From the IMG/VR virus record IMGVR_UViG_2913112809_000002: a stretch of DNA of 64,000 nt; one strand, written 5' to 3'. Below the pieces are notes generated by a model. It did not search any database, was not told the DNA's origin, and saw only the letters and a list, made by a program, of their open reading frames with translations. This document shows, piece by piece, positions 825-62,340 of the stretch; position 1 is the stretch's first letter; every line of letters starts with the position of its first letter. The stretch comes from a virus (Duplodnaviria > Heunggongvirae > Uroviricota > Caudoviricetes). A program made the position numbers and the translations under genes.

Positions 825-857
825 AAAGTCACTTGTTAAATTTCAGTGAAATTAAAA

Positions 858-1295
858 TTATTTTAAGCACTGCGTCCTGATGTACTCCTGCAGGTAGTTA
901 ACCTGCGCGGTTATCCTGTCGATTCCACTTCGGAGACGGTAATAATTGAGTTCAGCATCTGCTGTAAGTCTTGGGCTTTCTCCATCGCCCATGCCGCTGG
1001 CTCCGGTCGTTGACTTTGCACAGGTGGCGGCGACTTGCAGGCGCTTACGCCCAGCAGAAACATCAGCACGGAGACTTTCGATAGTCGCGTTAGCATCAGC
1101 AAGCTCCTTTGTGTATCTGGCGTCGAGTTCTGCTACGTCACGTTGACGCTTCTGCATGTCAGCGATTATGGATGCGGCTTTGTCGCGCTGCTCTTTATAG
1201 GCGATGGCGTTATCACGGTAATGATTAACAGCCCATGACAGGCAGACGATGATGCAGATAATCAGAGCGGAGATAATCGCGGTTAACCTGCTCAT
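858..1295 (-). CDS. Rz: Rz i-spanin
   Basis: Translation [30 protein letters not shown]... resembles lambda/P21 Rz; N-terminal TM; start overlaps R stop. Confidence 0.8.
911..1102 (-). CDS. Rz1: Rz1 o-spanin lipoprotein, embedded in Rz in +1 frame
   Basis: Embedded ORF with lipobox LLGVSAC and proline-rich stretch [13 protein letters not shown]. Confidence 0.6.
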
Positions 1296-1789
1296 TGCTG
1301 CCCCCACAAACAGACTTCACGCTCAATCTCACGACGGGTCATCAGCCCTTTCCATTGCTTACCGCCAGCGTATGTCCAGCGACGTAGCTGGTCACATGCG
1401 CCCTTGATATCGCCCTGGTTGATTTTGCGAAGAAGCGTCGATGTTCTGAAATTGCCTGCGCCCACGTTATAGACGAACGAATAAAGAGCGCCGCGCGTTG
1501 TTTCCGGTATATCGACTTTGATGTACGGGTTAATTTGTCTGGCGACCGTGGCAAGGTCTTTATTCAGGAGGGCTTTGCATTCTGCTTCGGTATACGTTTT
1601 ACCGGGAATGATGTCTTTTCCTGTATGCCCGTAACATACAGTCCATACACCAACAATATCTTTGTATGGTATGTAGCTGACACCTTCCAGACCATCGTTA
1701 CCACTTGGTCCAGTGATTAACACAGATGCTATAGCAATAGCCCCGCCACCAATAGCAGCAGCAACGGCTTTTCGTAATGATGGAGGCAT
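1292..1789 (-). CDS. R: SAR endolysin (T4-type lysozyme, phage 21 R-like)
   Basis: N-terminal signal-anchor [20 protein letters not shown] followed by lysozyme E...C/D...T catalytic region. Confidence 0.85.
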
Positions 1790-2004
1790 TATTCACCTCT
1801 CGCAGCCTTTCGTCTGTCTTCTCTGATTTTGAAATACAGATTTGTCAGATAAGTGAGAAAACCCAACACAAGGCTTCCAAGCACTCCAATCGCAGCCCAC
1901 TGTGACGGACTGACCTGATCCAACCACTGCAAAAACCAGTATCCTGCACTACCAGCAGATGTTCCGTAGGCAATGCCAGTTGAGATTTTGTCCATTGATT
2001 TCAT
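1789..2004 (-). CDS. S: Pinholin, phage 21 S-like (dual start MKSMDK)
   Basis: 71 aa, [63 protein letters not shown] matches S21 pinholin as recalled. Confidence 0.85.
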
Positions 2005-2122
2005 AGCAACGCCTCCGCCAGTAACGGATTGCGTAGTTCTTATATTGGGAAGGGGAAAAAAGAAGGCCGCAGCGTAACTATCACTGATGAATTCAGGATA
2101 GCCAGTGGCTACGGCTCAGTTA

Positions 2123-2198
2123 TGGTGCTGGTTAACGGACTTGAACCGCTACCCATTCGCTTACAAGGCGACTGCTCCACCACTGGAGCTAAACCAGC
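2123..2198 (-). tRNA. tRNA-like gene, anticodon UGU (Thr) by manual fold
   Basis: 76 nt; acceptor GCTGGTT/AACCAGC, D-stem GCTC/GAGC, anticodon loop CTTGTAA, T-arm GGTTCAAGTCC, encoded CCA. Confidence 0.55.
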
Positions 2199-2203
2199 AT
2201 ATT

Positions 2204-2278
2204 TGGCGGGACAGCGTGGACTCGAACCACGATAAGAAGGTTAACAGCCTTCCGTAATGACCTTTATACGACTGACCC
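2204..2278 (-). tRNA. tRNA-like gene, anticodon GUU (Asn) by manual fold; one acceptor-stem mismatch, possibly degenerate
   Basis: 75 nt; anticodon stem GAAGG/CCTTC, loop CTGTTAA, T-arm CGTGGTTCGAGTCCACG, 3' GCCA; T:T mismatch at acceptor pair 4:68. Confidence 0.4.
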
Positions 2279-2280
2279 AA

Positions 2281-2341
2281 ATAAAAAATCCCGAAACCGT
2301 TATGCAGGCTCTAACTATTACCTGCGAACTGTTTCGGGATT
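2281..2341 (-). terminator. tR'-like terminator downstream of Q/PR'
   Basis: Inverted repeat tcccgaaac/gtttcggga with inner gcagg/cctgc stem, followed by T-run on minus strand. Confidence 0.5.
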
Positions 2342-2552
2342 GCATTTTGCAGACCTCTCAGCCTGCGATGGTTGGAGTTCCAGACGATACGTCGAAGTGA
2401 CCAACTAGGCGGAATCGGTAGTAAGCGCCACCTCTTTTTATCTCACTACCACAACGAGCGAATTAACCCATCGTTGGGTCAAATTTACCCAACCTTATTC
2501 AAAAAGTCAATATCATGCCGTTAATATGTTGCCATCCGTGGCAATCATGCTG
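2342..2552 (-). promoter_or_regulatory. Late promoter PR' / qut region (inferred from position)
   Basis: Intergenic segment between Q stop and tR'-like terminator, as in lambda. Confidence 0.35.
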
Positions 2553-3176
2553 CTAACGTGTGACCGCATTCAAAATGTTGTCTGCGATTGACTCTTCCTT
2601 GTGGCATTGCACCACCAGAGCGTCATACAGTGGCTTAACAGTGCGTGACCAGGTGGGTTGAGTAAGATTTGGGATTAGCATCGTTACAGCGCGATATGCG
2701 GCGCTTGCTGGCATCCTTGAATAGCCGACGCCTTTGCATCTTCCGCATTCTTTCTCAACAACTCTCCCCCACTGCTCTGTTTTTGCTATATCAACCGCAC
2801 GGCCTGTACCGTGACAATCTCTGCATCTTGCGCCCGGCGTCGCGGCACTACGGCAATAATCCGCATAAGCGAATGTTGCAAGCACTTGCAGTACCTTTGC
2901 CTTAGTATTTCCTTCAAGCTTTGCCACACCACGGTATTTCCCCGATACCTTGTGTGCAAATTGCATCAGATAGTTGATAGCCTTTTGTTTGTCGTTCTGG
3001 CTGAGTTCGTGCTTACCGCAGAATGCAGCCATTCCGAATCCGGCTTGTGATTGCGCCATCCCCATAGCAGCCATCACATCAGTACCAGAAAGAGAGTCAG
3101 AAGCCGTGGCCCGTGGTGAGTCACTCATCATCGGGCTTTTTGGCGAATGAAATTTAGCCACGCTTTCGAGTCTCAT
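2553..3176 (-). CDS. Q: Late antiterminator Q (lambda Q-like)
   Basis: 207 aa, [28 protein letters not shown]... with CxxC...CxxC zinc motif; matches lambda Q as recalled. Confidence 0.85.
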
Positions 3177-3838
3177 GCGCCTTCTCCCTGTACTTGAATC
3201 AATGTGAGGTTTCCGCAGAACACTGCGCCGGTATCGATATACATCTGGTTGGCAAACTTGAGTGGTTTCACTGCTGGCGTATGACCAAAGATGAACGTGT
3301 CCGCGCCTTTGATTTCTTTCACGATCCCGTCTTGTGAGTTGCTGATTCGTTCGCGGTTCCAGATTACCTGCTGATGATCAACTGGCTTTCCAAACTCGTA
3401 TTCGTCACAAGGATAATCGGCGTGGCAGATGACATATTTTTTATCTTTGCTCACCAGTTCGATGATTAACGGAAGTTCATCTGCTTTATGGGCAAGAGCT
3501 TTAGCCAGAATTTCTTTGTCGTAATCGAGATTAAAGAACCAGCCACCGCCATTAAGCATCCAGTGATTGACGTTTCCGCGCTCTGATAAGCCATCAATCA
3601 TCATTTGCTCATGGTTTCCACGTACAGCTCTGAACCAGGGGAATGTGATTAATTCCAGGCATTCGACGTTCTCTGTACCGCGATCGACCAAATCGCCAAC
3701 CGAGATAAGCAGGTCTTTTTTGGTGTCGAATCCTATCGTCTCCAGTTTTTTCATCAGGTTCGTGTAGCATCCGTGCAGATCGCCAACTACCCAAATATTT
3801 CGGTATTTGCTGCCATCAATTTTTTCGTAATAGCGCAT
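3173..3838 (-). CDS. ninI: Ser/Thr protein phosphatase NinI (lambda orf221-like)
   Basis: [23 protein letters not shown]...GNHE metallophosphatase motifs; start chosen at internal Met matching lambda. Confidence 0.85.
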
Positions 3839-4022
3839 CTCTTTCACTCCATCCGCGATGAACCATGAGAACGTCGTTGACGATGGCGTGCATTTTCCCG
3901 TCTTTATCATCAACGTATTTTCTGACCGTACCGCGACTACATTTCAGTCTGCGTGCTACTTCTGTCTGGTTTCCGTATGCTTCAACGAGCATGTCTGGAA
4001 TGGTTTTTACTGAGAACGTCAT
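3816..4022 (-). CDS. ninH: NinH
   Basis: 68 aa [39 protein letters not shown]... matches lambda NinH; 23-nt overlap with ninI as in lambda. Confidence 0.85.
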
Positions 4023-4630
4023 GCGGCCTCACTTCTGCTATTTCGCAGGTCTTTGAGTTTCTGTTGGTACTCTGCCTTGATCGCCTTGCACTCTTCGATA
4101 GTCCAGCGATGGCGGTTATGGTTTGATTCGATTTCGTCTACTGCTTCCTGCCCGATGCGGCTAATCAGTTCGACGCGATACGGAACGAGATTTCCGCTTT
4201 TGTGCTGGTTGCACACCACGCATTGCTTGTGAATATTGCGTTCATCAAATCGGAGTTGAGGTGCCGCAGCAGTTGTCCGGTAATGTCCGGCATCCCACTG
4301 AGCAGACGTGAGCGTTCCGCACGAGATACATGGTAAGTCGCGGTCTCTTTCTCTGATGAAGGCGTTTACGGCTTGTTGGGCTTGTTTAATCCAGTAACTG
4401 CGGGGCTTTAAGGCGAGTTTTCGAATCTTAAGTTTATCTTTCTGTTTCTGCTCCTCTCGTCGTCGTTTCTTCTCTGCTGCTTTTTCCGCTTTTTTGCGTT
4501 CTTTACTTCGTCGTTCGAGTGCTATCTTGGTTCCACACTCTGGAGAGCACCACCACTGATTAGCGAATGCAGGGTGAAACCATTCCCGACATTCATCGTT
4601 TTTACATCGTCTTCGCGCTGGTTTAGCCAT
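4019..4630 (-). CDS. ninG: NinG (Rap recombination endonuclease)
   Basis: 203 aa [33 protein letters not shown]... matches lambda NinG. Confidence 0.85.
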
Positions 4631-4799
4631 CGTCTTCTTCCTCGTACATTGAGCTATTCGGATCGCTCATCAGTTCTGCGCAGCAATCGGAGCACACGTG
4701 AACTTCCAGCACATGCAGCTTCTGACCGCAGTTAGCGCACGTTAAAGCTCGCTCGACGCTTTCTTTCTGGTATTGAAGAGATTGGGATGGACTAAGCAT
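4623..4799 (-). CDS. ninF: NinF
   Basis: Manual translation [58 protein letters not shown] (58 aa, below the ORF-track cutoff). Confidence 0.75.
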
Positions 4800-5217
4800 T
4801 ATTAGCGTCCTGCATCATGAGAAAGACAATCATGGCGGCGCGGAGAGGCGATTCGCCACAGAAGCAGTAGCCAGGAATATTTTCCCATTCCCAACAACCT
4901 TCCTCTAAATCACCTCCTGACCATGCGCACCATTCTTTTTCCGCTGTCATCCACATAGTGCTGATTTTGCTTTCAGTGATAATTGGCCACGCGTATTCAG
5001 GATTATTGCAAGGATTGAAGCAATTCCCGTTTGAAGAACGGAAGCCATTAATATCCCTTTTTTGCGTCTGCCAAATAGGACCTCTTTCGTCAGTGGGGAT
5101 CTCAGAATCGAAGTCTGCTTCGTCATCAGGTATGAAGAAATGCTCCTCCATATCTAAAGCCTCACATACTCGTCTGTTAATTTCAAAATCACTTAACTGT
5201 GAATAATCCATTGTCAT
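4792..5217 (-). CDS. Hypothetical nin-region protein (DUF2591-like by recollection)
   Basis: [31 protein letters not shown]...; compact overlap with neighbours. Confidence 0.45.
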
Positions 5218-5390
5218 TTCCTCGCACGATGTCTTAGCCACCGGATATCCAACAGGTGAGCCGTGTAGTTGAAGGTTTTTACGTCAGATTCTTTTGGGAT
5301 TGGCTTGCGTTTATTTCTGGAGCGTTTCGTTGGAAGGTATTTGCAGTTTTCACAGATTATGTCGGTGATACTTCGTCGCTGTCGTCTCAT
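5214..5390 (-). CDS. ninE: NinE
   Basis: [46 protein letters not shown]... matches lambda NinE; start at internal Met of the ORF. Confidence 0.8.
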
Positions 5391-5797
5391 TCGTACCTCC
5401 TGTCGGTAAATCTGACGCCCTGACCAATAGCCCATGCTGTCGTGTACTCAATCAGACTTGCCATACGCTTCACACTCATCTGCGCGCTACTTTCGCGAAT
5501 GTTGACGTATTCGCCTTCAAGGCCGGGCAAAACATCAGCTTCCTGCTTTGTTGCCACTGCATGACCGCTAATCAACAAAACCTTCCATTGTTCTGGTTTT
5601 AACCACTTATCGCACCATTGAACCTGACGTGCGATATCCGCCAGCATCGCGTGAAATTTTGCGTTCTGGTCAAGGTTGCGCTTGTAGTCAGTAATGCGGA
5701 TGGTGACTGGCTTGTCTTTATCGAGTGGTGTTGCGAGGATGGCATTTATTGCAGCTTGCTGTTGTTGTTTAGTTCGGAGGAAGATTGTTTGCTTCAT
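5387..5797 (-). CDS. ninB: NinB family recombination protein
   Basis: 136 aa with DQN..RQV.W pattern of NinB/Orf family; position upstream of ninE. Confidence 0.6.
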
Positions 5798-6131
5798 CGA
5801 AATTCTTCTCTTTAATTCCAGCGGCTCTGATAGCTTTCATTACTGCAATTACCGTTTTGTCTCTCCCATCCTCATAACCCATCGCATAAGCACCTTCTTC
5901 ACCATCTTTCCAAAAGTCGTCATTCGATTCGGGCCAGTCAATATCCAGTTCAATAGCTGCTCGCGATGCCTGCCACGTTTGCCAGTGGCCTTGAACATCG
6001 TCCATCACGTATTGACCACCAATATCACCACTGCCAATTTCATGGTGATTTTCAGGGTAACGGATAAGGTCTGAGGATTCGCCTCCACGTCGCAACCAAC
6101 TTTCTTCAAACTGCTTTCTTGATTCGTCCAT
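5769..6131 (-). CDS. Hypothetical acidic protein
   Basis: 120-aa ORF in nin-region operon; no recognised domain. Confidence 0.35.
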   Translation of the reverse strand: MDESRKQFEESWLRRGGESSDLIRYPENHHEIGSGDIGGQYVMDDVQGHWQTWQASRAAIELDIDWPESNDDFWKDGEEGAYAMGYEDGRDKTVIAVMKAIRAAGIKEKNFDEANNLPPN

Positions 6132-6148
6132 CGATACTTACCCTCAGT

Positions 6149-6355
6149 TCAACTCACAAAACGCCACGCCATTTTTGCTACAGCGACAGGCATAACACCG
6201 ATAATCACCCACAGGAAAATGCTACCGAAAAGCACACCCACCAGGTCTTTACCTTCGCCTACCAACCGGACAAAACTGCTGGCAACAACAATGAACGTCG
6301 CCACCATCCACATAGCACCGAGAATCCTCAATGCAGAGAAAATTAACTCAGCCAC
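6149..6355 (-). CDS. Small membrane protein (two predicted TM helices)
   Basis: 68 aa, hydrophobic segments MWMVATFIVVASSFV and VLFGSIFLWVIIGVMPVAVA. Confidence 0.4.
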   Translation of the reverse strand: MAELIFSALRILGAMWMVATFIVVASSFVRLVGEGKDLVGVLFGSIFLWVIIGVMPVAVAKMAWRFVS

Positions 6356-6429
6356 GATTTACCCTCCCCCCCAAATAAAAAGGCCTGCGATTACCAGCAG
6401 GCCTGTTATTAGCTCAGTGATGTAGATGG

Positions 6430-7806
6430 TCATACGTCAGCCCCTTGTGCATATCGTCTGCCACGCGCAGCAGGTGCATTTGATGCTGTGCAAATCTGTC
6501 TGGCTTCATCCTGGTCACATGCAACAAAGTGTCCGTTGCAGAACCGCTGGTAAACCGTACCAAGTGAGCCAAAACGGTTTTTCGTCACGATGATTTCAGC
6601 AAATGGCGCGGCGCTACTGTTCTCGTCATATACCGCTTCCCGATAGAGCATGATGATTGAGTCTGCGTCCTGCTCAATGCTTCCTGAATCACGCAAATCT
6701 GCGTTTGTCGGACGTTTGTTTGGTCGCTTCTCAACATCGCGCGAAAGCTGACTCAGGGAGATAACCGGTGTTTTCAGGTCTTTCGCCATCGCCTTCAGGC
6801 TTCCGGAGATGTGAGCAATTGCGAGGTCGTTGCGGTCTGCTTTCGGCTTCTCAATCAGGCCAAGATAATCCGCCATGATGAGTGACAGGTTTGGATTTTC
6901 CTGTTTGTGCCGCTCTGCGATTGAGCGAATTTCTTCGACCGATAACCGCGAGGCATCGACTACCCATACATCCAAATCTGCAAGCTGACTCATGCCGTTA
7001 GCAACACGCGCCCAGCCTTCGTCATCCATCGATGCAGGATTTCGCAGCACGCTAACCGACATCCTCCCGGCGTTGGCAATACTTCGCTCTGCAATCTGCA
7101 ATGCGCTCATTTCCATTGAGAAAATCAATACTCCGCGCCGGACGTCAGAACCAGGAATAACACGACTTGCAACGCCTTCGGCAATCTTCAGCGCCAGTTC
7201 GGTTTTCCCCATACCAGGACGAGCGGCGATAATCACCAGGTCTTCTGCGTTCATCCCTCCGGTGATGGCGTCAAGTTCTTCGATTCCGGTCTTCAGGGTA
7301 TCTGACTCTTCTCCGTTCCTCAGACGCCTGTCAAGCGTGTCAGTGTAGTCAGTGATGATTTCCCCTAACCGTACAGGTTTAACCTCGTCACGGGGCTTTC
7401 TGATGGCTGAAAGACGCTTTACAAACTCATCCATCGCCTGACTCGATGCGTCGATGGTTCCGCTCTGAATTGGTTCACGCATTTCATCCATGATTTCCAG
7501 CACCAGACGGCGGTGATAGTTATCCGCGACCATTCCGGCATATCCCTTCAGGTTTGCGGCACTCGGGCAGTTTTTGCTGGTCATCAGGATTGACGTGAAA
7601 TGCTCCTCTCCGCACGCCTCGGCAACCATCAGCGCGTCGATTAGGTTTCTGTTTCGCGCCTGCTTCCGGATAACCTCGAAGGCTTTCCGGTAGAGCGGAA
7701 TTGAAAACGCTTCCGGCTCAAGCGTTGCCAGAACGTCACTGGCAGTTGGTGTTAATCCACCAATCAGCAGGCCACCGATAACGCTCGCTTCGATATCCTG
7801 TTTCAT
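6430..7806 (-). CDS. Replicative DNA helicase (DnaB-like, P22 gene 12-type)
   Basis: 458 aa with Walker A GMGKTE and DnaB C-terminal motifs. Confidence 0.9.
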
Positions 7807-8750
7807 GCAATCCCCCTGTCTGCAAACTTTCCTTCCCGTACTCCCGTTAACGAATCTTCCCTCAGCAGGTAATCAAAATCTGCCGTCCAGCCCGTGTCGT
7901 TGTCTCCGAAGTAAAACGGCTTTGCCTGATGCACAAACGCCCTGACATACGCTCTGAAACCGTCCACATTTGGCGTTTTCAGTTGCGGGATGATTTTCTT
8001 CAGGCGGCGTTTGCGTTTCTCGTTGACCGCAACAGCGTGTGGCAGTCTGTCACCGACTTCGGTGTTGTAGGCGTTCAGGAAGGATTCGTAGTCGATTCGT
8101 TCTGCCTTGCGACGTTCAGGTTTAACCTGCCCATCGCCTCCCCCATTGGGGGGTAGGGGGGTATTATTTATATTCTTGTTAATACCTTCTTGTTCATGAT
8201 GTGCGGTTGTTTGTGCGGCTCCATGTGCGCTTTCATGTGCGGCATGTGCCCTGAAAGCCGCGCCATTACTGGCTTCGTCATGTGCGGCTTCATGTGCGGT
8301 TGTTTGTGCGGCTTCATGTGCGGGTGAATCGTCCATTTTTTGAGCATATTCATGGTAATTTGTGATGGTGATCACACGACCTTTTTGCTTCTCTCCATCA
8401 ATGGAGATCATCCCCTCTTTCACAAAAACCTGAAGCATCCGCTCAACCTGATCACGGCTTGCTGGCTTGCCATGCCTGTCGCATAACTGAAGACCTAAAT
8501 CAGCTGCTGTCACAACCAGTTGACCGGGTTGCAGATGCCATTCATGACCTTTGAAATTCGCTTTGTATGGCTTTCTGGCGGCATTCAGGAGAAGGTTTTC
8601 CCACAGGGTGCGAAGATAAACATCTTTCGCCCATGACTGTTTCAGAATGCTCCGGTACAACGGAATGTAACCAGTTTTCTGGTTCTCCATCCTGTTGCTC
8701 CTGCGCTCGTGTGCGGCGCTGAAATCGTAGATTTTTGCTGTATTGCTCAT
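7803..8750 (-). CDS. Replication initiator O-like protein (iterons inside gene)
   Basis: N-terminus [10 protein letters not shown] resembles lambda O; central AHEAA/AHGAA repeats encoded by DNA iterons. Confidence 0.75.
8190..8340. repeat. Iteron array (putative origin) inside O-like gene
   Basis: Direct repeats of catgtgcgg(c)t/gtttgtgcgg units; they also create the spurious HMKPH-repeat ORF 8168..8353. Confidence 0.55.
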
Positions 8751-8752
8751 AA

Positions 8753-9025
8753 CTACCTGCCTTGACGAAAGACCTTAAGAACATCGTTAAACTGACTTAC
8801 GGATATGTCTTCTTTGAGAAGCTTTTCCAGAAATGCGTTTGGAATGAACGTATATCCCTCCTCTTTTGGTAGAGACGGGAGCAACGCCCTCGCCTCAGCC
8901 TTCAGAAGCTCAGTTCTGGCAACTTTCACAAAAGAGATTTGAGTTCTTTCATCAATGGAACGAAGGAAGCGCAAACGCTTAGCTTCTTTGTGTGTATCAG
9001 GTGGATTAAAGCCTTTGTTTCGCAT
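8753..9025 (-). CDS. Hypothetical protein between cII-like and O-like genes
   Basis: 90-aa ORF, compact arrangement. Confidence 0.4.
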   Translation of the reverse strand: MRNKGFNPPDTHKEAKRLRFLRSIDERTQISFVKVARTELLKAEARALLPSLPKEEGYTFIPNAFLEKLLKEDISVSQFNDVLKVFRQGR

Positions 9026-9069
9026 ATAATTACCTCGTTGGATGTTGTTAAAATTCCATTTGTATTTGA

Positions 9070-9345
9070 TCAGAACGCTCGGTTGCCGCCGGGCGTTTTT
9101 TTATTGGTGAGTCCATCCAATGCATACTTAAAAGCCCTGCTAATCGGACTGATGTCTGATGCCATTCCAAAAGCACACAAGACCGAAGCAATAAATCTCC
9201 AGTCCGTTCTGCTTATCTTCGATTCATGACAGCCAATCATCTTTGCCAGACCGCGCTGGGTAAGCGTTGACAGGTTGATGAGTAAATCTGTTTCTGCGCG
9301 ATCAACGTCGCGCTGTGATAGTTTGCTGCAGCTTGTTTGTTCCAT
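9070..9345 (-). CDS. CII-like transcriptional activator
   Basis: 91 aa; HTH-like segment GLAKMIGCHESKISRTDWRF and ...NKKTPGGN resemble lambda CII; correct position. Confidence 0.5.
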   Translation of the reverse strand: MEQTSCSKLSQRDVDRAETDLLINLSTLTQRGLAKMIGCHESKISRTDWRFIASVLCAFGMASDISPISRAFKYALDGLTNKKTPGGNRAF

Positions 9346-9384
9346 TTCTTACTATTTCCATAGGTAAATAATCACTAATACCCA

Positions 9385-9420
9385 TCTTTCGATGAGCGCT
9401 TAATTAGTTACCGCGTTGTC
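9385..9420 (-). promoter_or_regulatory. Candidate nutR (boxA-like CGCTCTTTA plus hairpin with GACAA-type loop)
   Basis: Minus-strand read ccgctctttatc ... accgc-cgacaac-gcggt between cro-like and cII-like genes. Confidence 0.35.
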
Positions 9421-9451
9421 GGCGGTGCAGATTGATAAAGAGCGGTGTTAC

Positions 9452-9679
9452 TTATGCAGCCAGAAGGTTCTTTTTGCTTATTTCAAGCATTTCGCTTGCT
9501 TGATATTTGCCACCAGAAATCTCTTCGATTTTTGATGCGTATTTAGTTTTCCCAAAAAACTCAGTCTTAGGGAGGAAGCCGTTTTTGAGCCACTTATAGA
9601 CAGCCCTTTCGCTAACTCCACAAGCCTTCGCAACTTCAGGGATGCCGACACCTTTAATCGGCTCATCAAGATTTTGCAT
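9452..9679 (-). CDS. Cro-like repressor (HTH)
   Basis: Divergent from cI; MQNLDEPIKGVGIPEVAKACGVSERAVYKWLKNG...; start set at second Met because upstream Met lies inside operator palindrome. Confidence 0.5.
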   Translation of the reverse strand: MQNLDEPIKGVGIPEVAKACGVSERAVYKWLKNGFLPKTEFFGKTKYASKIEEISGGKYQASEMLEISKKNLLAA

Positions 9680-9757
9680 AGGAATATCCTTTTTCGTACT
9701 TTCAGTACGCATTATGATTGAACTGAAAGTTTTTGCAAGTGCTTTAGTATCGTACTC
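9680..9757. promoter_or_regulatory. OR operator/promoter region (PR/PRM)
   Basis: Perfect palindrome cgtactttcagtacg at 9695..9709 plus half-sites actgaaagt (9722..9730) and cgtac (9751..9755) between cro-like and cI. Confidence 0.55.
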
Positions 9758-10465
9758 ATGGTTCAGAATGAAAAAGTGCGCAAAGAATTCGCCCAGCGGC
9801 TAGCGCAAGCCTGTAAAGAAGCTGGTCTTGATGAACATGGTAGGGGGATGGCCATAGCCCGTGCCCTTTCTCTTTCGTCCAAAGGCGTTAGCAAATGGTT
9901 TAATGCTGAGTCTTTACCGCGTCAGGAAAAAATGAATGCGCTTGCGAAATTTCTAAACGTTGATGTTGTTTGGCTTCAGCACGGCACTTCGTTAAATGGA
10001 GCGAATGATGAAGATACTCTTTCATTTGTTGGCAAATTAAAAAAAGGGTTAGTGCGCGTGGTTGGTGAGGCAATTCTTGGTGTTGATGGTGCCATCGAGA
10101 TGACCGAAGAGCGCGATGGGTGGCTCAAAATTTATAGCGATGATCCTGATGCCTTTGGTCTTCGTGTGAAAGGAGACAGCATGTGGCCCAGAATAAAATC
10201 AGGAGAATATGTACTCATTGAGCCTAACACCAAAGTATTCCCGGGTGATGAGGTGTTTGTCAGAACCATCGAAGGACACAACATGATCAAGGTTCTTGGC
10301 TATGACAGAGATGGAGAATACCAATTTACAAGCATCAACCAGGACCACAGACCAATAACGTTGCCTTATCATCAAGTAGCCAAAGTGGAGTATGTGGCTG
10401 GTATTCTGAAGCAATCTCGCCATCTGGATGACATCGAGGCAAGGGAGTGGCTGAGAGATTCCTGA
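9758..10465 (+). CDS. cI: CI repressor (HTH + S24 LexA-like peptidase)
   Basis: 235 aa; N-terminal HTH, C-terminal GDSM...K autocleavage domain. Confidence 0.9.
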   Translation: MVQNEKVRKEFAQRLAQACKEAGLDEHGRGMAIARALSLSSKGVSKWFNAESLPRQEKMNALAKFLNVDVVWLQHGTSLNGANDEDTLSFVGKLKKGLVRVVGEAILGVDGAIEMTEERDGWLKIYSDDPDAFGLRVKGDSMWPRIKSGEYVLIEPNTKVFPGDEVFVRTIEGHNMIKVLGYDRDGEYQFTSINQDHRPITLPYHQVAKVEYVAGILKQSRHLDDIEAREWLRDS

Positions 10466-10571
10466 CATCAAAGTCATAGAGTGAGTTTTCTAGTTAGAAA
10501 TAGTGGTCAATGGGTACGCGTAGGTAAACCGTTTAAACATAATAAACAAGCCATATAAGATGAAATAAATC

Positions 10572-10928
10572 ATGAGCGATAAAGAGTTTAAAGTACTTAA
10601 TTTTGATGACTTTGCTCATTATTTGAGCACATTGAACGGCGAACAAATTTGTCCAATGTGTATGGAAGAGTCATGGACGCTTTTCACCCCAAACAAGCTT
10701 CCTCCAGAAGACGAGGATAGGTATGTAATAAGTTCTATCCCAGGATCACTTATTTCAAGTAAAAGACCTGAAAAATCAAATCTCTTCTTCAGAAGTTACA
10801 ACAACGATGTCCTCCTGATGCAATGCAGAAATTGTGGATACATGGCATTTTTTAATTATAAAAAAGTCCAAGAAAACCTTGAGTCAGGGGATTATATAAA
10901 AAAAAGAAGATATAGATATGGTGGATGA
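10572..10928 (+). CDS. Hypothetical zinc-ribbon protein (cargo at rexA position)
   Basis: 118 aa, CPMC and CRNC pairs; AT-rich; stop overlaps next start (ATGA). Confidence 0.55.
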   Translation: MSDKEFKVLNFDDFAHYLSTLNGEQICPMCMEESWTLFTPNKLPPEDEDRYVISSIPGSLISSKRPEKSNLFFRSYNNDVLLMQCRNCGYMAFFNYKKVQENLESGDYIKKRRYRYGG

Positions 10929-11410
10929 AAATGACAAATCAGAAGACTGATTTCTTCCGTCCAATGGAGTATGATAACAAATATGAGCAATTTGGTGTTA
11001 TAGAAGCACACAGGAATGGTCGCTCTACTCCGTCATATCAGCCAGGCACCATTGGTAAGGATATCCCGGTTATTATTGCGCATAAGTTAAGCGATCAACC
11101 AGCAGAGGGTGAGTCACAGATGAGCGTAAAATCACTGTCACGTTGGGAGTTTTGGCTAGGGATTTTCACTGCCATTATTGGGATATTTTCCATTGTTGTA
11201 GGAGCAACGTGGACAATTTCTAATAATATCAATGATAAGATTAATGCATCAAGACAAGAGCTAACTGGGAACATCCAATCCAGTCGAGCAGAAATCACGG
11301 CAAGAATTGACAGGCTCGAAGATAAGATGGAGTCTAATTTCAAAGAAACATCATCGAGCCTGTTCAAAATACAGGCAATTCTAGAAGCAAAATCCGACAA
11401 AGAAAAATAA
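10925..11410 (+). CDS. Hypothetical single-pass membrane protein with coiled-coil C-terminus (cargo at rexB position)
   Basis: 161 aa, TM segment WEFWLGIFTAIIGIFSIVVGATW, heptad-like C-terminus; followed by terminator. Confidence 0.55.
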   Translation: MKMTNQKTDFFRPMEYDNKYEQFGVIEAHRNGRSTPSYQPGTIGKDIPVIIAHKLSDQPAEGESQMSVKSLSRWEFWLGIFTAIIGIFSIVVGATWTISNNINDKINASRQELTGNIQSSRAEITARIDRLEDKMESNFKETSSSLFKIQAILEAKSDKEK

Positions 11411-11416
11411 GAAAGT

Positions 11417-11440
11417 CCGGCCTCAGCGCCGGGTTTTCTT
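11417..11440 (+). terminator. Intrinsic terminator after cI/cargo operon
   Basis: ccggc-ctcagc-gccgg hairpin followed by gttttcttt. Confidence 0.55.
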
Positions 11441-11594
11441 TGCCTCACGTTCCCCACACCTAATAACACATTAACCAATTGTATTTATTGAAAAATTGAT
11501 AGATACAACTTGCTAAACCACGAAATTCTGATCCCTGCCGCATAACCTTCATCCGCAACATTTACAAAAATAAATTTCCTTATATATCAAAATC

Positions 11595-11665
11595 ATATTT
11601 CGTAGAGTTAATAAACCACAAAAATTTCGTACCAATAGTTCTTGATAATGTCGAACTATTGGTTC
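11595..11665. promoter_or_regulatory. OL/PL region
   Basis: Half-sites ttcgtag and ttcgtac matching OR half-site ttcgtac; 11-bp inverted repeat accaatagttc/gaactattggt at 11631..11663. Confidence 0.4.
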
Positions 11666-11714
11666 ATTATTATCGCCATCAGCAGGAAGCTGGAAGCCAA
11701 ACGGAACAGATTGG

Positions 11715-11751
11715 CATGCTCTTTAACTTCGATGGGGCGCTGACAAAGCGC
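11715..11751 (+). promoter_or_regulatory. nutL (boxA gctctttaa; boxB gcgctgacaaagcgc, P22-type)
   Basis: boxB hairpin GCGC-TGACAAA-GCGC at 11737..11751 upstream of N. Confidence 0.6.
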
Positions 11752-11870
11752 AAACAGATACCAAACGAGATGGGTTTGGCGGTGATGTGAATTGCAGCTG
11801 CAACGACAGCAACCAGAAGATCAGCATCTGGCGCATCACCACCAAAGCCATTTCACATGAGGAAAACATC

Positions 11871-12206
11871 ATGACGGTAATCGTGTACGGAAAATCAACA
11901 TTTGCAGGAAATGCCAAAACTCGCCGTCATGAGCGGCGCAGAAAGCTTGCTATTGAGCGTGATGCTATCTGTAACATCATTGATTCTATCTTCGGCACAG
12001 ATAGTGAGGAACCTGTTCAGGAGGCCCCAAGAAAGCGTTTAAGCCTTTCTGAAAAAGCAATATCACTCGGAAGCCTTCGCTGCAAGAAGGCAGAAGAAGT
12101 CGAGCGTAAACAGAACCGTATTTACTACAGCAAGCCACGCAGTGAAATGGGTGTGACCTGTGTCGGTCGCCAGAAAATGAAATTAGGCAGCAAACCACTT
12201 ATTTGA
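11871..12206 (+). CDS. N: Antiterminator N (P22 gene 24-like arginine-rich motif, lambda-like C-terminus)
   Basis: ARM GNAKTRRHERRRKLAIERD; C-terminus YSKPRSEMGVTCVGRQKMKLGSKPLI resembles lambda N; SD gagga before ATG. Confidence 0.75.
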   Translation: MTVIVYGKSTFAGNAKTRRHERRRKLAIERDAICNIIDSIFGTDSEEPVQEAPRKRLSLSEKAISLGSLRCKKAEEVERKQNRIYYSKPRSEMGVTCVGRQKMKLGSKPLI

Positions 12207-12216
12207 GGACTGATAC

Positions 12217-12459
12217 ATGAGAGTAAAAACTATGGGCGCAAGCCCATTAAGCGGTCGTATTTTTCAAGGAACATTAAACACTGAAAAAGGAATGTGGGTA
12301 GGAAAAAAAGAAGATGTAACCGAACAGGCAGTTAAGGCAGTAACTGAACACCTGATGATAAAAGACCGGAAATATGCATACGAAACGAATGATGGCAAAT
12401 GGGTGATAATAATGCATCAACTGGTTGATGAATTACCAGAAGAGTTTATTGCTGATTAA
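12217..12459 (+). CDS. Hypothetical protein
   Basis: 80-aa ORF directly after N, AT-rich. Confidence 0.4.
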   Translation: MRVKTMGASPLSGRIFQGTLNTEKGMWVGKKEDVTEQAVKAVTEHLMIKDRKYAYETNDGKWVIIMHQLVDELPEEFIAD

Positions 12460-12490
12460 AATTATTTTGGCATAAACAACAGAAGCGAAG

Positions 12491-12688
12491 ATGTTGACAG
12501 TTGGTAAGTCATATTCAACTAAAAATGGAAAGACATTTAGTTGTGAAAAAGATATTGGAGAAATAGACACCATCTTTCCATTTGGTGGATGGGTATACAA
12601 TTCTGATGGAAGCAAAGACAGATTTGCATATTACACCAGAGGAGGTGCTTATAAACCAACCAAATCAGAATATGACTTAATTATTTAG
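12491..12688 (+). CDS. Hypothetical protein
   Basis: 65-aa ORF, AT-rich. Confidence 0.35.
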   Translation: MLTVGKSYSTKNGKTFSCEKDIGEIDTIFPFGGWVYNSDGSKDRFAYYTRGGAYKPTKSEYDLII

Positions 12689-12834
12689 CACAGAGAAGCA
12701 CTGTGTATTCATTCCAACGAGTGAATACACGGAGCAATGTCGCTCGTAACTAAACAGGAGCCGACTTGTTCTGATTATTGGAAATCTTCTTTGCCCTCCA
12801 GTGTGAGGGCAATTTTTTTGACGGAGAAATTATG

Positions 12835-13248
12835 AAAATTACAGATATTCTGGTTAATCCAGATAATTACGACCAATTCAATATCTCTACTAAATCGGTT
12901 GATTTGGGATGTGCAACTGTCAGCGCATGGCTACTTAATGGTAAACAGTTGGATAAATGCCTTGATGCACATATGACGGTTAACAGCTTCCTTGCAGAAA
13001 AGACACACTGGCAAGATGCTGGAGGGAAATATGCTGGATGGCTTGAAAGCATGGGATTTGAATATCAATCTGATGAAGGTTGGTGGAGCCTCATAGCTGT
13101 AACGCCTGAGACAATAGAATGCTTCGTTAAATACTCAAACGACGATGACTATAAACACCAGGTAGATTCTGCGATAGAAAGATATAGAAGAAAATCATTC
13201 AACCACGAAATATCATCAGTTCTTGATTTCATAGAAGTATTCAAATAA
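12835..13248 (+). CDS. Hypothetical protein
   Basis: 137 aa from MKITDILVNPDNYDQ..., SD ggag before ATG; preceded by hairpin and T-run at 12788..12823. Confidence 0.45.
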   Translation, partial: KITDILVNPDNYDQFNISTKSVDLGCATVSAWLLNGKQLDKCLDAHMTVNSFLAEKTHWQDAGGKYAGWLESMGFEYQSDEGWWSLIAVTPETIECFVKYSNDDDYKHQVDSAIERYRRKSFNHEISSVLDFIEVFK

Positions 13249-13331
13249 GCCGCCAAGAGCGGCTTTACCGCATACCAATAATGCTTCACCCGAGGCATTT
13301 CCGTTATGTGTAAATAAATAAGGAGCACACC

Positions 13332-13472
13332 ATGCAATATGTCATTGCAGGGTGGCCTGTTGCTGGCTGCCCTTCCGAATCTTTACTTGAACGAATCACC
13401 CGTAAATTACGTGACGGATGGAAACGCCTTATCGACATACTTAATCAGCCGGGAGTTCCAAAAAATGGATAA
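13332..13472 (+). CDS. cIII: CIII (protease FtsH inhibitor)
   Basis: Manual translation MQYVIAGWPVAGCPSESLLERITRKLRDGWKRLIDILNQPGVPKNG matches lambda CIII. Confidence 0.85.
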   Translation: MQYVIAGWPVAGCPSESLLERITRKLRDGWKRLIDILNQPGVPKNG

Positions 13473-13578
13473 AACACTTATGGCTATCCAGACTAAATTC
13501 ACTATCGCCACTTTTATTGGCGATGAAAAGATGTTTCGTGAGGCCGTCGAAGCCTACAGGAAATGGAGGTCAAAATGA
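13465..13578 (+). CDS. kil: Kil-like host-killing protein
   Basis: MDKTLMAIQTKFTIATFIGDEKMFREAVEAYRKWRSK; overlaps cIII end as in lambda. Confidence 0.55.
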   Translation: MDKTLMAIQTKFTIATFIGDEKMFREAVEAYRKWRSK

Positions 13579-13763
13579 TTCCGGTAGAACTGGCGAAAAC
13601 TCCAGAGTTAAGTCGATTAAAAAGAGAATATCACATTGCTGAGGCTCGTTACTGGCGTAAAGCGGGAGATAAATCAAAGAAACAACTTTGTTTATGGCAG
13701 GCACAAAGAGAGCGCATGAATGAGCGCGAGTTTCTTTCCTCCCCATCCGAATTACCATTCTGA
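13575..13763 (+). CDS. Hypothetical protein
   Basis: ATGA overlap with kil, SD ggagg. Confidence 0.35.
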   Translation: MIPVELAKTPELSRLKREYHIAEARYWRKAGDKSKKQLCLWQAQRERMNEREFLSSPSELPF

Positions 13764-13771
13764 GGCAAATT

Positions 13772-14452
13772 ATGGGAACTGCGACATTAATACTCGGTGA
13801 GTCTGGCACCGGAAAATCAACCAGCATGAGAAATATCAATCCCGAGGAAGCAATACTTATAAAACCAATAGGCAAGCCGCTACCATTTAAATCAAAAGAC
13901 TGGCTTGCATGGGATGCCAGAGCAAAAAAAGGAACCGTAGTTACCACTGACAAATGGGACGTAATAGTTGCCGTAATTAAGCGTGCTCACGAATACGGGA
14001 AAAGAATCGTTATTGTTGATGACTTCCAGTATGTGATGAGCAATGAGTTTATGCGCCGCTCAGAAGAAAAATCGTTTGATAAATTTACTGAGATAGGCCG
14101 CCACGCATGGGAGGTGATTAAGGCTGCACAGGATGCGCCTGATGACCTGAGAGTCTATTTTCTTGCCCATACCGAAGAAACCCCTATGGGGCGTGTGAAA
14201 ATGAAGACTATCGGCAAAATGCTGGACGAGAAAATCACTGTCGAAGGCATGTTTACTATAGTTCTTCGCACTCTTACCCGCGATGACCAGTTCTTTTTCA
14301 CCACGAAAAACAACGGTGCAGACACTGTTAAATCCCCAATGGGAATGTTTGATTCCAATGAGATTGATAACGATCTCTCTTTCGTCGATGCCACTGTTTG
14401 TGATTACTACGGCATCAATAATGTTCATCAAATTAAGGAAAACGCCGCATGA
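13772..14452 (+). CDS. P-loop ATPase (AAA_24/Sak4-like recombination-associated ATPase)
   Basis: Walker A GESGTGKS, Walker B RIVIVDDF; position of recombination module. Confidence 0.55.
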   Translation: MGTATLILGESGTGKSTSMRNINPEEAILIKPIGKPLPFKSKDWLAWDARAKKGTVVTTDKWDVIVAVIKRAHEYGKRIVIVDDFQYVMSNEFMRRSEEKSFDKFTEIGRHAWEVIKAAQDAPDDLRVYFLAHTEETPMGRVKMKTIGKMLDEKITVEGMFTIVLRTLTRDDQFFFTTKNNGADTVKSPMGMFDSNEIDNDLSFVDATVCDYYGINNVHQIKENAA

Positions 14453-15036
14453 GCAACGTGATTTTTACTTATAACGAAGAAGCAGCACTGACCGCAGGAC
14501 AAGGTGGTTTTATTAATGAAACTGGCGCTCATATTATTACCATTACTGAAGCAGAACTAAAGCAATCAGAAAAAGGAGCCAAATTTATTGAGTTTTCTGG
14601 AGAATCCGACGACGGACGTAAAATCCAATATCTTAGCGTTTGTGTTCAGAAAAATGACGGCACGGAAAACAAATTTGGCGCAAATGTCGTTCACGCCATG
14701 ATGGGGTGTGCCGGGATTGGGCAATTAACGCAACATATGGTTTCCGCCAGTAAATTTGTTGCACCTGAATTTCATGGAAAGAAAATCGGGTTAGTGCTCC
14801 AGAAAGTATTAACCACAAACAAAAAGACTGGCGCAGACAGCTACCAGATGGAAATACGCATCCCGTTTATTGCACAAACAGGTCAAACCCTTAAAGAAAA
14901 GGCGGAAGGCAAGCAACCAGAAACTATCGCCAACATGGTTGCCAGCCTCAAAGATAAAGACAATCGCTCTAAAAACGTAAGCCAGAATCATGCAGATGAT
15001 TATGGTTACAGCCAGAACGATTACCCTCCTTTCTGA
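14449..15036 (+). CDS. Hypothetical protein (DUF669-like partner of AAA_24 ATPase, by recollection)
   Basis: 195 aa, translationally coupled to the ATPase. Confidence 0.4.
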   Translation: MSNVIFTYNEEAALTAGQGGFINETGAHIITITEAELKQSEKGAKFIEFSGESDDGRKIQYLSVCVQKNDGTENKFGANVVHAMMGCAGIGQLTQHMVSASKFVAPEFHGKKIGLVLQKVLTTNKKTGADSYQMEIRIPFIAQTGQTLKEKAEGKQPETIANMVASLKDKDNRSKNVSQNHADDYGYSQNDYPPF

Positions 15037-15059
15037 TTATTGAAAATAAGGCTCCCATT

Positions 15060-15356
15060 ATGCCAGCGCCTCTGTATGGTGCGGATGACCCGCGCCGCTG
15101 TTCCGGCAATTCCGTATTGGAGGTGCTGGATAAATTCAGAAAAAACTACGACCTGATAATGTCGCTACCGCAGGAAACGAAAGAGGAAAAGGAATTTCGC
15201 CATTGTATATGGCTTGCAGAGAAAGAAGAACGCGAGCGAATTTACCAGACATTAATCCGACCATTCCGCAAAGCCACATATACCCACTTCCCTGAATATA
15301 TCGACTCGCGCCTACGTAATTACCGCTCACGCTATGGCGCTATCAGTAATGACTGA
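15060..15356 (+). CDS. Hypothetical protein
   Basis: 98-aa ORF. Confidence 0.35.
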
Positions 15357-15543
15357 GGAATTTACCATGAGAGGACTTGCATACAATCCCGGCATTCTTC
15401 CGGCAGAAATGATTATTCGCCAACGCGTAAAGCCAATGCCATCAAGAGAGGAATTACTTAAGAGAAATAGTTTCGGTTCTGTTAACGACAACAGATATCT
15501 TGAAATGATTTTGAGGAGTAAGAAGGATTATGTCAAAAAATGA
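15334..15543 (+). CDS. Hypothetical protein
   Basis: 69-aa ORF. Confidence 0.3.
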
Positions 15544-16108
15544 CATTTCATATGAATACCTCATTAGCAACATTCACTACGATAAAGAAACTGGGGTTTT
15601 CAAGAAGATAATTAAATCAAATAATGGGGATATAATTGGTTTCAAACCAACTGGCTGTACGCACTCGATGGGATACATAAGGATATATATTAATAAAAAA
15701 TGGTATTTAGCGCACAGACTAGCTTGGTTATATGTTACCGGGAAATGGCCAGTAAATGTAATTGATCACATCAACAGAAATAAAGCTGACAACAGGTTTA
15801 TTAACCTACGAGATGTCTCCAGTAGGGAAAACAATAGCAATACAAGTAGAAATAAAGGAACTGAAATAGGCACAGAAAGGTGTGCTTATGGATGGAGAGC
15901 ATACATAGGTGTTAATGGAAAACTACATCACCTTGGCTCATATGCAACATGTGATGGTGCAAAATATGCGTATGCTCTAGCAAAATATCAAGTAGAAATA
16001 TATGGTTACCTGCGCCCCACACCAATCGATTGCAGAAAATTAAATTACGGAAACAGGGGGAATCGTAATGGAAATCCTAAATCAAACCGTCGCAAGTTCC
16101 ATCAGTGA
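15530..16108 (+). CDS. HNH homing endonuclease
   Basis: [16 protein letters not shown]...[20 protein letters not shown] motif; AT-rich insertion-like. Confidence 0.75.
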
Positions 16109-61392: not shown

Positions 61393-62340
61393 ATGAGCAG
61401 CAAGCTTCATGGTCTTGTCTGGGAAGGGTGTGCCTTCACCGGCATGATCTTATCCCGGGTAGCAGTAATGGCTCGCCTTGCAGACTACAGCAATGACGAA
61501 GGTGTGTCATGGCCTGCAGTGGAGACTATTCGTCGTCAGATTGGGGCAAAGAGTGAATCAACGGTTAAAGCTGCGATAGCGGAACTGGAAAAGAACGGCT
61601 GGCTGACGAAGGAGGAACGTAAGGTCGGTGGGCGTAATGTAAGCAATATTTACCGCCTTAATGTGGAAAAACTTGAAGCAGCAGCGGCGGCGGCGCGTGA
61701 GGCATATAAACCGAAAAGAAAAATTAACCCGGTAAAAAATGACCCGTCAAATATTGACCCCTCAACGGTTGACCCGTCAAATTTTGATGGATCAACAGTT
61801 GATAAAAAACAGCCGGTTAGGGGGGCGATGGTTGGCCCCGATCCGTCAGTATTAAAACCTGATCCGTCAGATAAAAGATCTTCTTGTCCGGACGCTTCGC
61901 AACCGGACCCGCAGACGGCTGAACAGGATTTTTTAACCCGACACCCTGACGCTGTTGTGTTCAGTGCGAAAAAACGCCAGTGGGGCAGCCAGGAAGATTT
62001 GGCGTGTGCGCAGTGGATCTGGGGGCGAATCGTGAGTCTTTACGAGCAGGCCGCCAGCGATGATGGCGAGCTCATGCGACCGAAAGAACCCAACTGGGCT
62101 GCATGGGCCAATGATGTGCGCACAATGCGGATGCTGGATGGCAGAACTCACAGACAAATTTGTGAAATGTTTGGTCGGGTACAGCGGGATCCATTCTGGG
62201 TAAAAAACATCATGAGCCCGTCAAAGCTCCGCGAAAAATGGGACGAACTGGTCATTCGCCTGGGGCGTTCGCCTGTACAGCGTTGTGTGAATCACATTTC
62301 TGAACCGGATACCGAAATTCCGCAGGGCTTCAGGGGGTGA
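61393..62340 (+). CDS. Replication initiator O-like protein with internal iterons
   Basis: 315 aa; N-terminal HTH-like region; NDPSNIDPSTVDPSNFDGSTVD peptide repeats encoded by DNA iterons. Confidence 0.55.
   Translation: MSSKLHGLVWEGCAFTGMILSRVAVMARLADYSNDEGVSWPAVETIRRQIGAKSESTVKAAIAELEKNGWLTKEERKVGGRNVSNIYRLNVEKLEAAAAAAREAYKPKRKINPVKNDPSNIDPSTVDPSNFDGSTVDKKQPVRGAMVGPDPSVLKPDPSDKRSSCPDASQPDPQTAEQDFLTRHPDAVVFSAKKRQWGSQEDLACAQWIWGRIVSLYEQAASDDGELMRPKEPNWAAWANDVRTMRMLDGRTHRQICEMFGRVQRDPFWVKNIMSPSKLREKWDELVIRLGRSPVQRCVNHISEPDTEIPQGFRG
61735..61810. repeat. Iteron array (putative origin)
   Basis: Direct repeats tgacccgtcaaat / ttgacccctcaacgg / ttgacccgtcaaatt / ttgatggatcaacag. Confidence 0.5.

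Follow-up and report, generated by a model that had tools for sequence, protein, structure and literature searches.

The window analysed here, a stretch of 64,000 nt of phage DNA, carries two prophages, each with a gene for a putative replication initiator, and the question is whether the short direct repeats inside these two genes (locus 1 and locus 2) are the sites at which the initiators bind. It has been reported that a lambdoid origin consists of iterons and an AT-rich region in the middle of the initiator gene (PMC7466680), and lambda, P22 and L each carry different repeats inside this gene, including 11-bp units in L (PMC8022706). From the analysis of the two genes, their repeats and their relatives we concluded that each array very probably represents the iterons (initiator-binding sites) of a lambda-type phage origin located within the initiator's own gene.

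The two initiator genes and their neighbors

The coordinates of all features are collected in Table 1. The two initiator proteins have the same length (315 aa) and are unrelated to each other by BLASTP. The locus 1 protein contains the Pfam domain Phage_rep_O at aa 20-132 (E=3.5e-15, above the curated cut-off), and its C-terminus (aa 185-309, 125 aa) shows 58% identity with P22 gp18; no lambda-O-type C-terminus was found in this protein, which is of the P22 gp18 type instead. The gene that overlaps its end encodes a helicase with the Pfam domain DnaB_C (E=1e-77) and a DnaB N-terminal domain. This combination of a gp18-type C-terminus and a DnaB-type helicase gene after it is that of P22 genes 18 and 12 and was found at locus 1 only. 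The locus 2 protein carries an HTH_36 domain at aa 25-71 in place of Phage_rep_O, which the Pfam search did not find in its N-terminus, and its aa 177-288 (112 aa) are 40% identical to aa 171-270 of lambda O. Both initiators are mosaic, each having one of the two features of the lambda O family. The initial assignment of both genes as replication initiators is upheld by the Phage_rep_O domain, the gp18-type C-terminus and the DnaB-type helicase at locus 1, and by the HTH_36 and lambda-O-like domains at locus 2. Searched by sequence against solved structures, the two N-terminal domains had no usable match (best E=0.17 and 0.83), and an AF2 single-sequence model of the locus 1 N-terminal domain was of low confidence (pLDDT 48).

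At the DNA level, many Stx2a phages and phages HF4s and JEP4 have a replication gene with 98-99% identity to that of locus 1, and phage CUS-3 has the same repeat units and an identical N-terminal 135 aa. A check for toxin genes after the Q gene and tRNAs at the left end of the window found three ORFs (71, 165 and 149 aa), which resemble a lysis cassette by size and order only. At locus 2, a repressor gene, a cro-like gene and a YdaT-family gene are found upstream and a DUF977 gene directly downstream, with no helicase or loader gene after the initiator gene; annotated E. coli relatives of this locus are found in a racR-ydaS-ydaT context.

Table 1. Position and strand of the replication features found at locus 1 and locus 2 of the window
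Feature	Position	Strand	Description
DnaB-type replicative helicase gene (P22 gene 12 type)	6430..7806	-	overlaps the end of the initiator gene
Locus 1 initiator gene	7803..8750	-	315-aa ORF, lambda-O/P22-gp18 class
CCCCC..GGGGG palindrome	8130..8152	.	start of the P22-type C-terminal module
AT-rich segment, candidate DNA-unwinding element	8160..8202	.	25% GC
Putative iteron cluster II	8197..8251	-	five units; cores start at 8199, 8211, 8223 and 8235, a weaker one at 8244
Central spacer	8252..8277	-	gene strand GAAGCCAGTAATGGCGCGGCTTTCAGG, aa SNGAAF
Putative iteron cluster I	8278..8325	-	four 12-nt units: CCGCACATGAAG / CCGCACAAACAA / CCGCACATGAAG / CCGCACATGACG (gene strand)
Locus 1 N-terminal DNA-binding domain, presumed iteron reader	8346..8750	-	aa 1-135
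Locus 2 initiator gene	61393..62340	+	315-aa ORF, Rac-type early region
A-rich low-stability tract directly upstream of the locus 2 repeats	61703..61743	.	least stable 41-mer in the gene, z=2.8
Putative iteron array, locus 2	61739..61810	+	four 15-nt units and a degenerate fifth (TGATAAAAAAC)
Two iteron-like GATCCGTCA units (61840, 61861) and a third GATC (61877)	61840..61880	+	AT-rich stretch
Lambda-O-like C-terminal domain of locus 2	61921..62256	+	BLASTP vs lambda O, E=8e-26

Repeat arrays and adjoining AT-rich DNA

The locus 1 array consists of nine head-to-tail units with the core CCGCACA on the gene strand, mostly 12 nt apart, and spans codons ~142-185. In the direction of the gene a cluster of four units is followed by a 26-nt spacer and a cluster of five, of which the ninth unit (8244-8251) is weaker. 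Tandem Repeats Finder reported 12-nt arrays at 8212-8243 and 8278-8323, and a repeat search recovered copies of TCATGTGCGGC and a 50-nt duplication (8193-8242 vs 8274-8323). The four units of locus 2 start at 61740, 61755, 61770 and 61785 with an exact 15-nt period and the consensus TTGACCCGTCAA (codons ~116-140); here Tandem Repeats Finder called arrays with periods of 15 nt (61740-61787) and 30 nt (61740-61802). Two search patterns were derived from the data themselves, so their match probabilities are optimistic: WTGTGCGS has eight matches on the + strand of locus 1 (8199, 8211, 8223, 8235, 8280, 8292, 8304 and 8316, spaced 12, 12, 12, 45, 12, 12 and 12 nt) where ~0.017 are expected in the array interval, with a largest same-strand cluster of 2 in 200 shuffles, and TGAYSSNTCAA has four matches, all in the locus 2 array and nowhere else in the 64 kb, with a largest shuffle cluster of 1. 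The tandem-repeat calls, and the conservation in relatives described below, are independent of the choice of pattern.

The preliminary description had placed repeat arrays in both genes, with coordinates that are right within ~10 nt, and formal analysis found them periodic (12 nt at locus 1, exactly 15 nt at locus 2) rather than degenerate. As had been proposed, the arrays, which are in frame, also code for peptide repeats: AAHE/AAQTT at locus 1 and DPSN/DPST at locus 2. The two repeat families share no sequence, in agreement with the earlier view that they are unrelated, and the DNA-binding domains of the two proteins are unrelated as well. A different specificity of the two initiators, also suggested at that time, is thus the natural reading and is likely. 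The two prophages should therefore not cross-activate each other's origins.

No dyad symmetry was found within the locus 1 units, which at a 12-nt spacing differ from the 18-20-bp dyad iterons of lambda and P22. The binding geometry of lambda can therefore not simply be carried over to locus 1. The locus 2 units also differ from these dyads, being only 12 nt long at a 15-nt period, with inverted ends in two of the four: unit 3 (TTGAC..GTCAA) and unit 4 (TTGAT..ATCAA), the latter reading TTGATGGATCAA. Neither a DnaA box nor an IHF consensus was seen when the spacer and the units of locus 1 were inspected by eye. Of all that was observed at the two loci, only these short asymmetric 12-nt units are somewhat out of the ordinary.

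An AT-rich unwinding segment next to each array was looked for, and the two loci differ in this respect. At locus 1 it is clear: the 41-mer at 8162-8202 is the least stable one of the gene and of the 4.5 kb from 6000 to 10500 (z=3.5-3.6, top 0.4%). In the direction of the gene, this candidate unwinding segment lies directly after the array and is followed by the CCCCC..GGGGG palindrome, which is homologous to CCCCCTTACCCCCTAAAGGGGG of P22; the P22 copy starts at the right-hand end of the annotated rep_origin. The AT-rich tracts on either side of the locus 2 array reach no more than moderate instability (z=2.5-2.8 in the gene; among the top 3-4% of the window). One of them lies directly upstream of the repeats (Table 1), and the second least stable 41-mer of the gene (61848-61888) lies downstream of the array.

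Repeat units and DNA-binding domains among relatives

For locus 1 we compared five phage relatives and 36 loci from genomes across Enterobacterales. The N-terminal identity of the phage relatives to locus 1 is 100% for CUS-3, 81% for Klebsiella phage 2b LV-2017 and 74% for Yersinia phage vB_YenM_210.17; Salmonella phage S.Inf 5-2 (53%) and Enterobacter phage ENT1 (45-47%) are more distant. Full-length relatives have a common scaffold of 3-5 12-nt units, a spacer (CCAGYRRTGGCGCGGCYTC), 3-5 further units, CATCATGAACAAGAAG and AT-rich DNA; the exceptions are one locus interrupted by a stop, one that has lost the spacer together with a cluster, and two on contigs whose shortness prevents a reading. 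The scaffold is followed by one of several unrelated C-terminal modules (P22-type, lambda-type, Xenorhabdus type and others), and where this module is of the lambda type a P or DnaC-like gene lies downstream. Relatives with 66-100% N-terminal identity to locus 1 have CCGCACAT units whatever the type of the C-terminus. Relatives at 45-53% identity have wholly different 12-nt units (CCCGATGAA/CCATCCGA, GAGGTAAC, GTCGAA or CCGATACAC), and in this group the two clusters of a locus are near-identical copies of each other, a sign of concerted evolution. The central spacer of the locus 1 type is kept even in relatives with entirely different iterons. In more than 45 related loci, as judged by sequence comparison, the sequence of the unit tracks the N-terminal domain and not the C-terminal module.

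The repeats might be a by-product of a repetitive, disordered linker, made by selection on the peptide or by neutral slippage, with the origin located elsewhere. Such a linker would account for in-frame arrays that encode low-complexity peptides between two folded domains, and for a copy number that varies as slippage would make it vary. Codon usage in the relatives argues against this explanation, which we consider highly improbable. In 142 in-frame units from 22 loci of the locus 1 family, at the wobble position codon 1 (the preceding codon) has C in 141 units and the Ala codon has A in 141, while the base at the start of codon 1 varies almost at random, so that P, A, G, T or S is encoded; these loci share ancestry and are not phylogenetically independent, so the counts overstate the significance. 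Nine loci have a silent change of GCA to GCG (or GAG) in every unit of the array, and exactly these nine carry S for A/P at residue 82 and H for D at residue 100 of the N-terminal domain (A82S, D100H). By overall identity they do not form one clade and fall in at least three sequence backgrounds: locus L032 is most similar (86%) to a protein of the CACAT type, and L038 likewise has its closest relatives in the CACAT type. The low-confidence AF2 model places residues 82 and 100 at the starts of helices; this would fit the reading head of a helix-turn-helix and is only a weak hint. Wobble bases that are fixed while the encoded residues vary, together with silent changes that extend to all copies, indicate that the constraint acts on the DNA. 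A linker by-product would also have to explain why the type of repeat goes with the N-terminal domain and not with the linker's neighbors, and why the arrays lie where lambda and P22 have their origins.

The relatives of locus 2 give a similar picture. Five phages with 55-72% N-terminal identity to locus 2 (Kp4866-6, vB_EcoS-716R3, SfII, YeP1 and phiP27) contain four to seven 15-nt TGAYNNNTCAAA units and 2-3 downstream GATC-bearing units. The known initiators closest to that of locus 2 are those of Rac-like prophages and of SfII, SfIV, 716R3 and YeP1, which have in common with it the N-terminal family and the design of the units. Among complete E. coli genomes the closest allele is 97% identical, and most are ~90% identical with one more unit. 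The copy number in E. coli alleles changes by whole 15-nt units: strain C7 has 15 nt more than the window (one more unit), and MS 145-7 has 30 nt fewer than C7. The repeat region of locus 2 is 91-98% identical to that of an allele with 81% overall identity. The Ser codon TCA, which lies in the unit core, makes up 54 of 86 Ser codons in the linker vs 20 of 147 elsewhere in this family (Fisher 1e-14, an upper bound on the significance because the sequences are related). This over-use of TCA only inside the array is again at odds with a linker by-product. In relatives that share only the C-terminal half of locus 2, the similarity starts right after the repeats (gene nt 448-481); one of these, L004, has a different N-terminus and, in the equivalent place, five GGTCAAAATG repeats with a spacing of 23-24 nt. 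Taken together, co-variation with the N-terminal domain, fixed silent sites and copy changes by whole units support the view that the arrays behave in relatives as initiator binding sites.

The arrays could also bind a factor other than the initiator and act, for example, through Dam/SeqA, in an exclusion system or as a transcription roadblock. In favor of this, the iteron-like units of locus 2 at 61840..61880 include three GATC sites over 40 nt, and several relatives encode a Dam methylase just downstream. The GATC-bearing units are conserved in SfII, 716R3, YeP1, Kp4866-6 and phiP27, and the mosaic junction to the C-terminal module of locus 2 falls in the same stretch. A role of these units in modulating an origin is more plausible than one in its place, and no host-factor consensus was recognised in the main arrays. 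From Escherichia to Xenorhabdus the array sequence changes with the N-terminal domain of the initiator, and a host factor would not be expected to co-vary in this way; binding of another factor in place of the initiator is therefore extremely unlikely.

Whether the two origins are still functional is a separate issue. The arrays may be true iterons by descent while one or both origins are non-functional relics in defective prophages, and under this explanation locus 2 is more likely the relic than locus 1, because it lies in a Rac-like region and no loader or helicase gene follows. At the position of DUF977 directly after the locus 2 initiator gene, C7, 14EC017, MS145-7 and K-12 Rac have a DnaC-like ATPase. 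The replicon of the locus 2 prophage may thus be inactive or rely on the host. The prophage layout of the window also looks rearranged, and no complete E. coli genome has more than 46% of 10500-35000 in one place. Against decay, the isolated phages SfII, 716R3 and YeP1 share the initiator type of locus 2 and likewise have no loader gene downstream, so that the missing gene need not mean a dead replicon, although it might. Both ORFs of the window are intact, the arrays are as regular as those in these phages, and the isolated phages HF4s and JEP4 carry the locus 1 module at 98% identity. We regard the relic explanation as unlikely.

The Rac-like context of locus 2 raised the possibility that it corresponds to oriJ of K-12 Rac, and this identification was rejected. 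K-12 YdaU is a DUF1376 protein in which only the last 19 aa (the IPxGFRG tail) are alike, and no array comparable to that of locus 2 was found in the ydaU region of K-12 Rac. As YdaU is of another protein family, the likeness of locus 2 to Rac is confined to the context and does not extend to the oriJ sequence of K-12. No open paper on the sequence anatomy of oriJ was found in a literature search in which the name of an author dominated the hits.

Comparison with known origins and a proposed course of initiation

The preliminary description had likened the arrays to lambda ori, and their placement bears this out: they are located where the annotated iterons of lambda (O codons 117-145) and the annotated rep_origin of P22 (inside gene 18) lie. 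Lambda ori is made up of four 18-19-bp iterons and an AT-rich region inside gene O. As in lambda, the repeat array in the middle of the gene encodes the linker that joins the binding domain to the partner domain, and at locus 1 an AT-rich stretch on the C-terminal side is followed by a palindrome. The relationship to lambda also extends to the proteins, through the Phage_rep_O domain in the N-terminus of locus 1 and the lambda-O-like C-terminus of locus 2. Unlike lambda, locus 1 has nine asymmetric units 12 nt apart in two clusters around a conserved spacer, a P22-type C-terminus and a helicase gene in place of a P-type loader, while locus 2 has units 15 nt apart, an HTH_36 N-terminus and no P gene after it.

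Locus 1 is closest to P22 in its C-terminal domain, in the CCCCC..GGGGG element after the AT-rich stretch, in the downstream DnaB-type helicase and in the position of the origin, which matches the annotated P22 rep_origin. In contrast to P22, the N-terminal domain of locus 1 has no BLAST similarity to gp18, and the match begins only at the AT-rich/CCCCC element. The iterons of P22 are unrelated to those of locus 1, being four TCGGTAAAA-containing repeats 20-24 nt apart. Gene 18 of phage L, taken here from its published description, contains six imprecise 11-bp repeats that were proposed as the origin (PMC8022706); phage L and locus 1 are alike in having short direct repeats (11-12 nt) in a gene-18-type initiator, read as an iteron specificity of their own, and differ in the sequence of the repeats (TGTCCAACGGA). 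Since phage L has short units and belongs to this class, the 18-20-bp dyad iteron typifies lambda and P22 and is not a defining feature of the class. The phage called 'P27' in one study has lambda-like iterons (PMC7466680); it was considered as evidence for the initiator of phiP27 (AJ298298), which is of the L17 type and belongs to the locus 2 family, and was rejected for this use.

Similarity was also noted to the origins of iteron plasmids of the RepA/pi family, which likewise combine head-to-tail repeats with a winged-helix initiator and an adjoining AT-rich unwinding element. Plasmid iterons are ~19-22 bp long and located outside the rep gene, whereas the units described here are of 12-15 nt and form part of the coding sequence. 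Pfam and solved-structure sequence searches showed no relationship of either initiator to plasmid Rep proteins.

With the arrays taken as iterons, initiation might proceed as follows. Prophage induction would lead to synthesis of the initiator, and its N-terminal helix-turn-helix domain would bind the repeats in the DNA that encodes the initiator's own inter-domain linker. The resulting nucleoprotein complex would strain and open the adjoining AT-rich stretch, and the C-terminal domain would then bring in a helicase. For locus 1 the helicase would come from the phage itself, being the DnaB-type enzyme encoded downstream, in the manner of P22 gp18/gp12; for locus 2 a host helicase may be recruited via the lambda-O-like C-terminus. 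Binding, unwinding and firing at the two candidate origins are what we infer from the sequence.

It is conceivable, though rather doubtful, that the locus 1 class assembles an initiation complex unlike that of lambda, with single winged-helix domains bound at about one per helical turn in two arms. Two arrays of asymmetric 12-bp head-to-tail units that flank a conserved spacer would suggest stacked single domains and not dimers on palindromic 19-mers. If this is true, CCGCACAT with A82/D100 vs CCGCGCAT with S82/H100 would represent a natural one-base recognition switch.

Both loci add to a well-known kind of origin, and the finding is correct but ordinary: it mostly confirms the textbook arrangement, in which lambdoid phages keep the origin in the initiator gene and swap the binding domain and its iterons as one unit. 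The only points of experimental interest are the co-variation of the iterons with residues 82 and 100 and the 12-bp bipartite layout. It has been reported that replication of Stx phages is necessary for toxin production (PMC7466680), which gives maps of origins and initiators in non-lambda modules some applied interest. The practical value is modest: the likely origins are pinned down for the replication module of many Stx2a-converting phages and for a widespread class of Rac-like prophages. The two prophages of this window are predicted to replicate independently, and the co-variation of two residues with one base per repeat might be used to study or re-engineer the specificity of phage initiators.

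Gene order in the window and the region after Q

The prophage layout at 1-18600 and 53847-64000 of the window looked rearranged. The left part carries lysis-sized ORFs, two tRNAs, Q, a nin-like region, a helicase and the initiator on the (-) strand; the CI-like gene and the early-left genes are on the (+) strand, and the latter reach about 17 kb. No integrase was found between these early-left genes and the late genes that start at about 18 kb, and for the region 10500-35000 no complete E. coli genome had more than 46% in one place. In lambdoid and Stx phages tRNAs are often found just downstream of Q. The window has tRNA genes in two places, as a Thr-Asn and a Thr-Gly pair, and the pair next to Q is followed by the three ORFs of lysis-cassette size; judged by ORF size, no toxin-sized ORF pair was evident after Q and this tRNA pair.

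Coordinates of the features in the window
Feature	Position	Strand	Remark
Three ORFs	858-2004	(-)	lysis-cassette-like by size
First tRNA pair	2123-2278	(-)	just downstream of Q
Q antiterminator gene	2553-3176	(-)	
P22-type module palindrome	8130-8152		CCCCC..GGGGG
Locus 1 central spacer	8252-8277		between the two iteron clusters; about 20 nt; encodes SNGAA
CI-like gene	9758-10465	(+)	
Late genes	about 18-53.5 kb	(+)	terminase, portal, tail
Second tRNA pair	22745-22898	(+)	
Integrase	53847-54866	(-)	start of Rac-like element carrying locus 2
Three GATC sites	61840-61880		within 40 nt
DUF977 gene	62381-62797		directly after locus 2 initiator

GATC sites and downstream genes at locus 2

Of the three GATC sites in the locus 2 initiator gene, two belong to iteron-like GATCCGTCA units spaced by 21 nt, and similar GATC-bearing units are present in all five phage relatives that were read (SfII, 716R3, YeP1, Kp4866-6 and phiP27; L012-L016 equivalents). 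A DNA methylase gene lies close downstream in SfII, YeP1 and 716R3, and it is adenine-specific in SfII and YeP1. Together, the units and the nearby methylase genes suggest that this type of origin may be under Dam/SeqA control.

The DnaC-like ATPase and DUF1627 genes, located between the initiator and the DUF977 gene in E. coli C7, are absent from the window; in 14EC017 and MS 145-7 both are downstream of the initiator. Initiators share the C-terminal tail IPxGFRG whether or not a loader gene accompanies them, and K-12 YdaU has it too; the tail may be a contact motif for helicase or loader.

Spacer and right-hand end of the probable origin

The locus 1 spacer (consensus CCAGYRRTGGCGCGGCYTC) is kept in relatives with an N-terminal identity of 45-53% and wholly different iterons (L007-L054 equivalents). 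It may act as a site for a host factor, or it may encode a peptide that is itself conserved. At two genome loci (L021 and L053), the initiator gene of Xenorhabdus ehlersii is cut by a stop just past the spacer and a Symbiopectobacterium MAG has lost the spacer and one iteron cluster by deletion; these are probably prophage origins in decay.

Every type of C-terminal module opens with its own palindrome directly after the AT-rich stretch, as seen in the window, at 850-900 of L006 and at the linker ends of L007 and L008; that of the lambda-type module is TCAGAGAATTCTGGCGAATCCTCTGA. Since each module type brings its own palindrome, the partner domain appears to take the right-hand end of the origin along with it, just as the binding domain appears to take the iterons.
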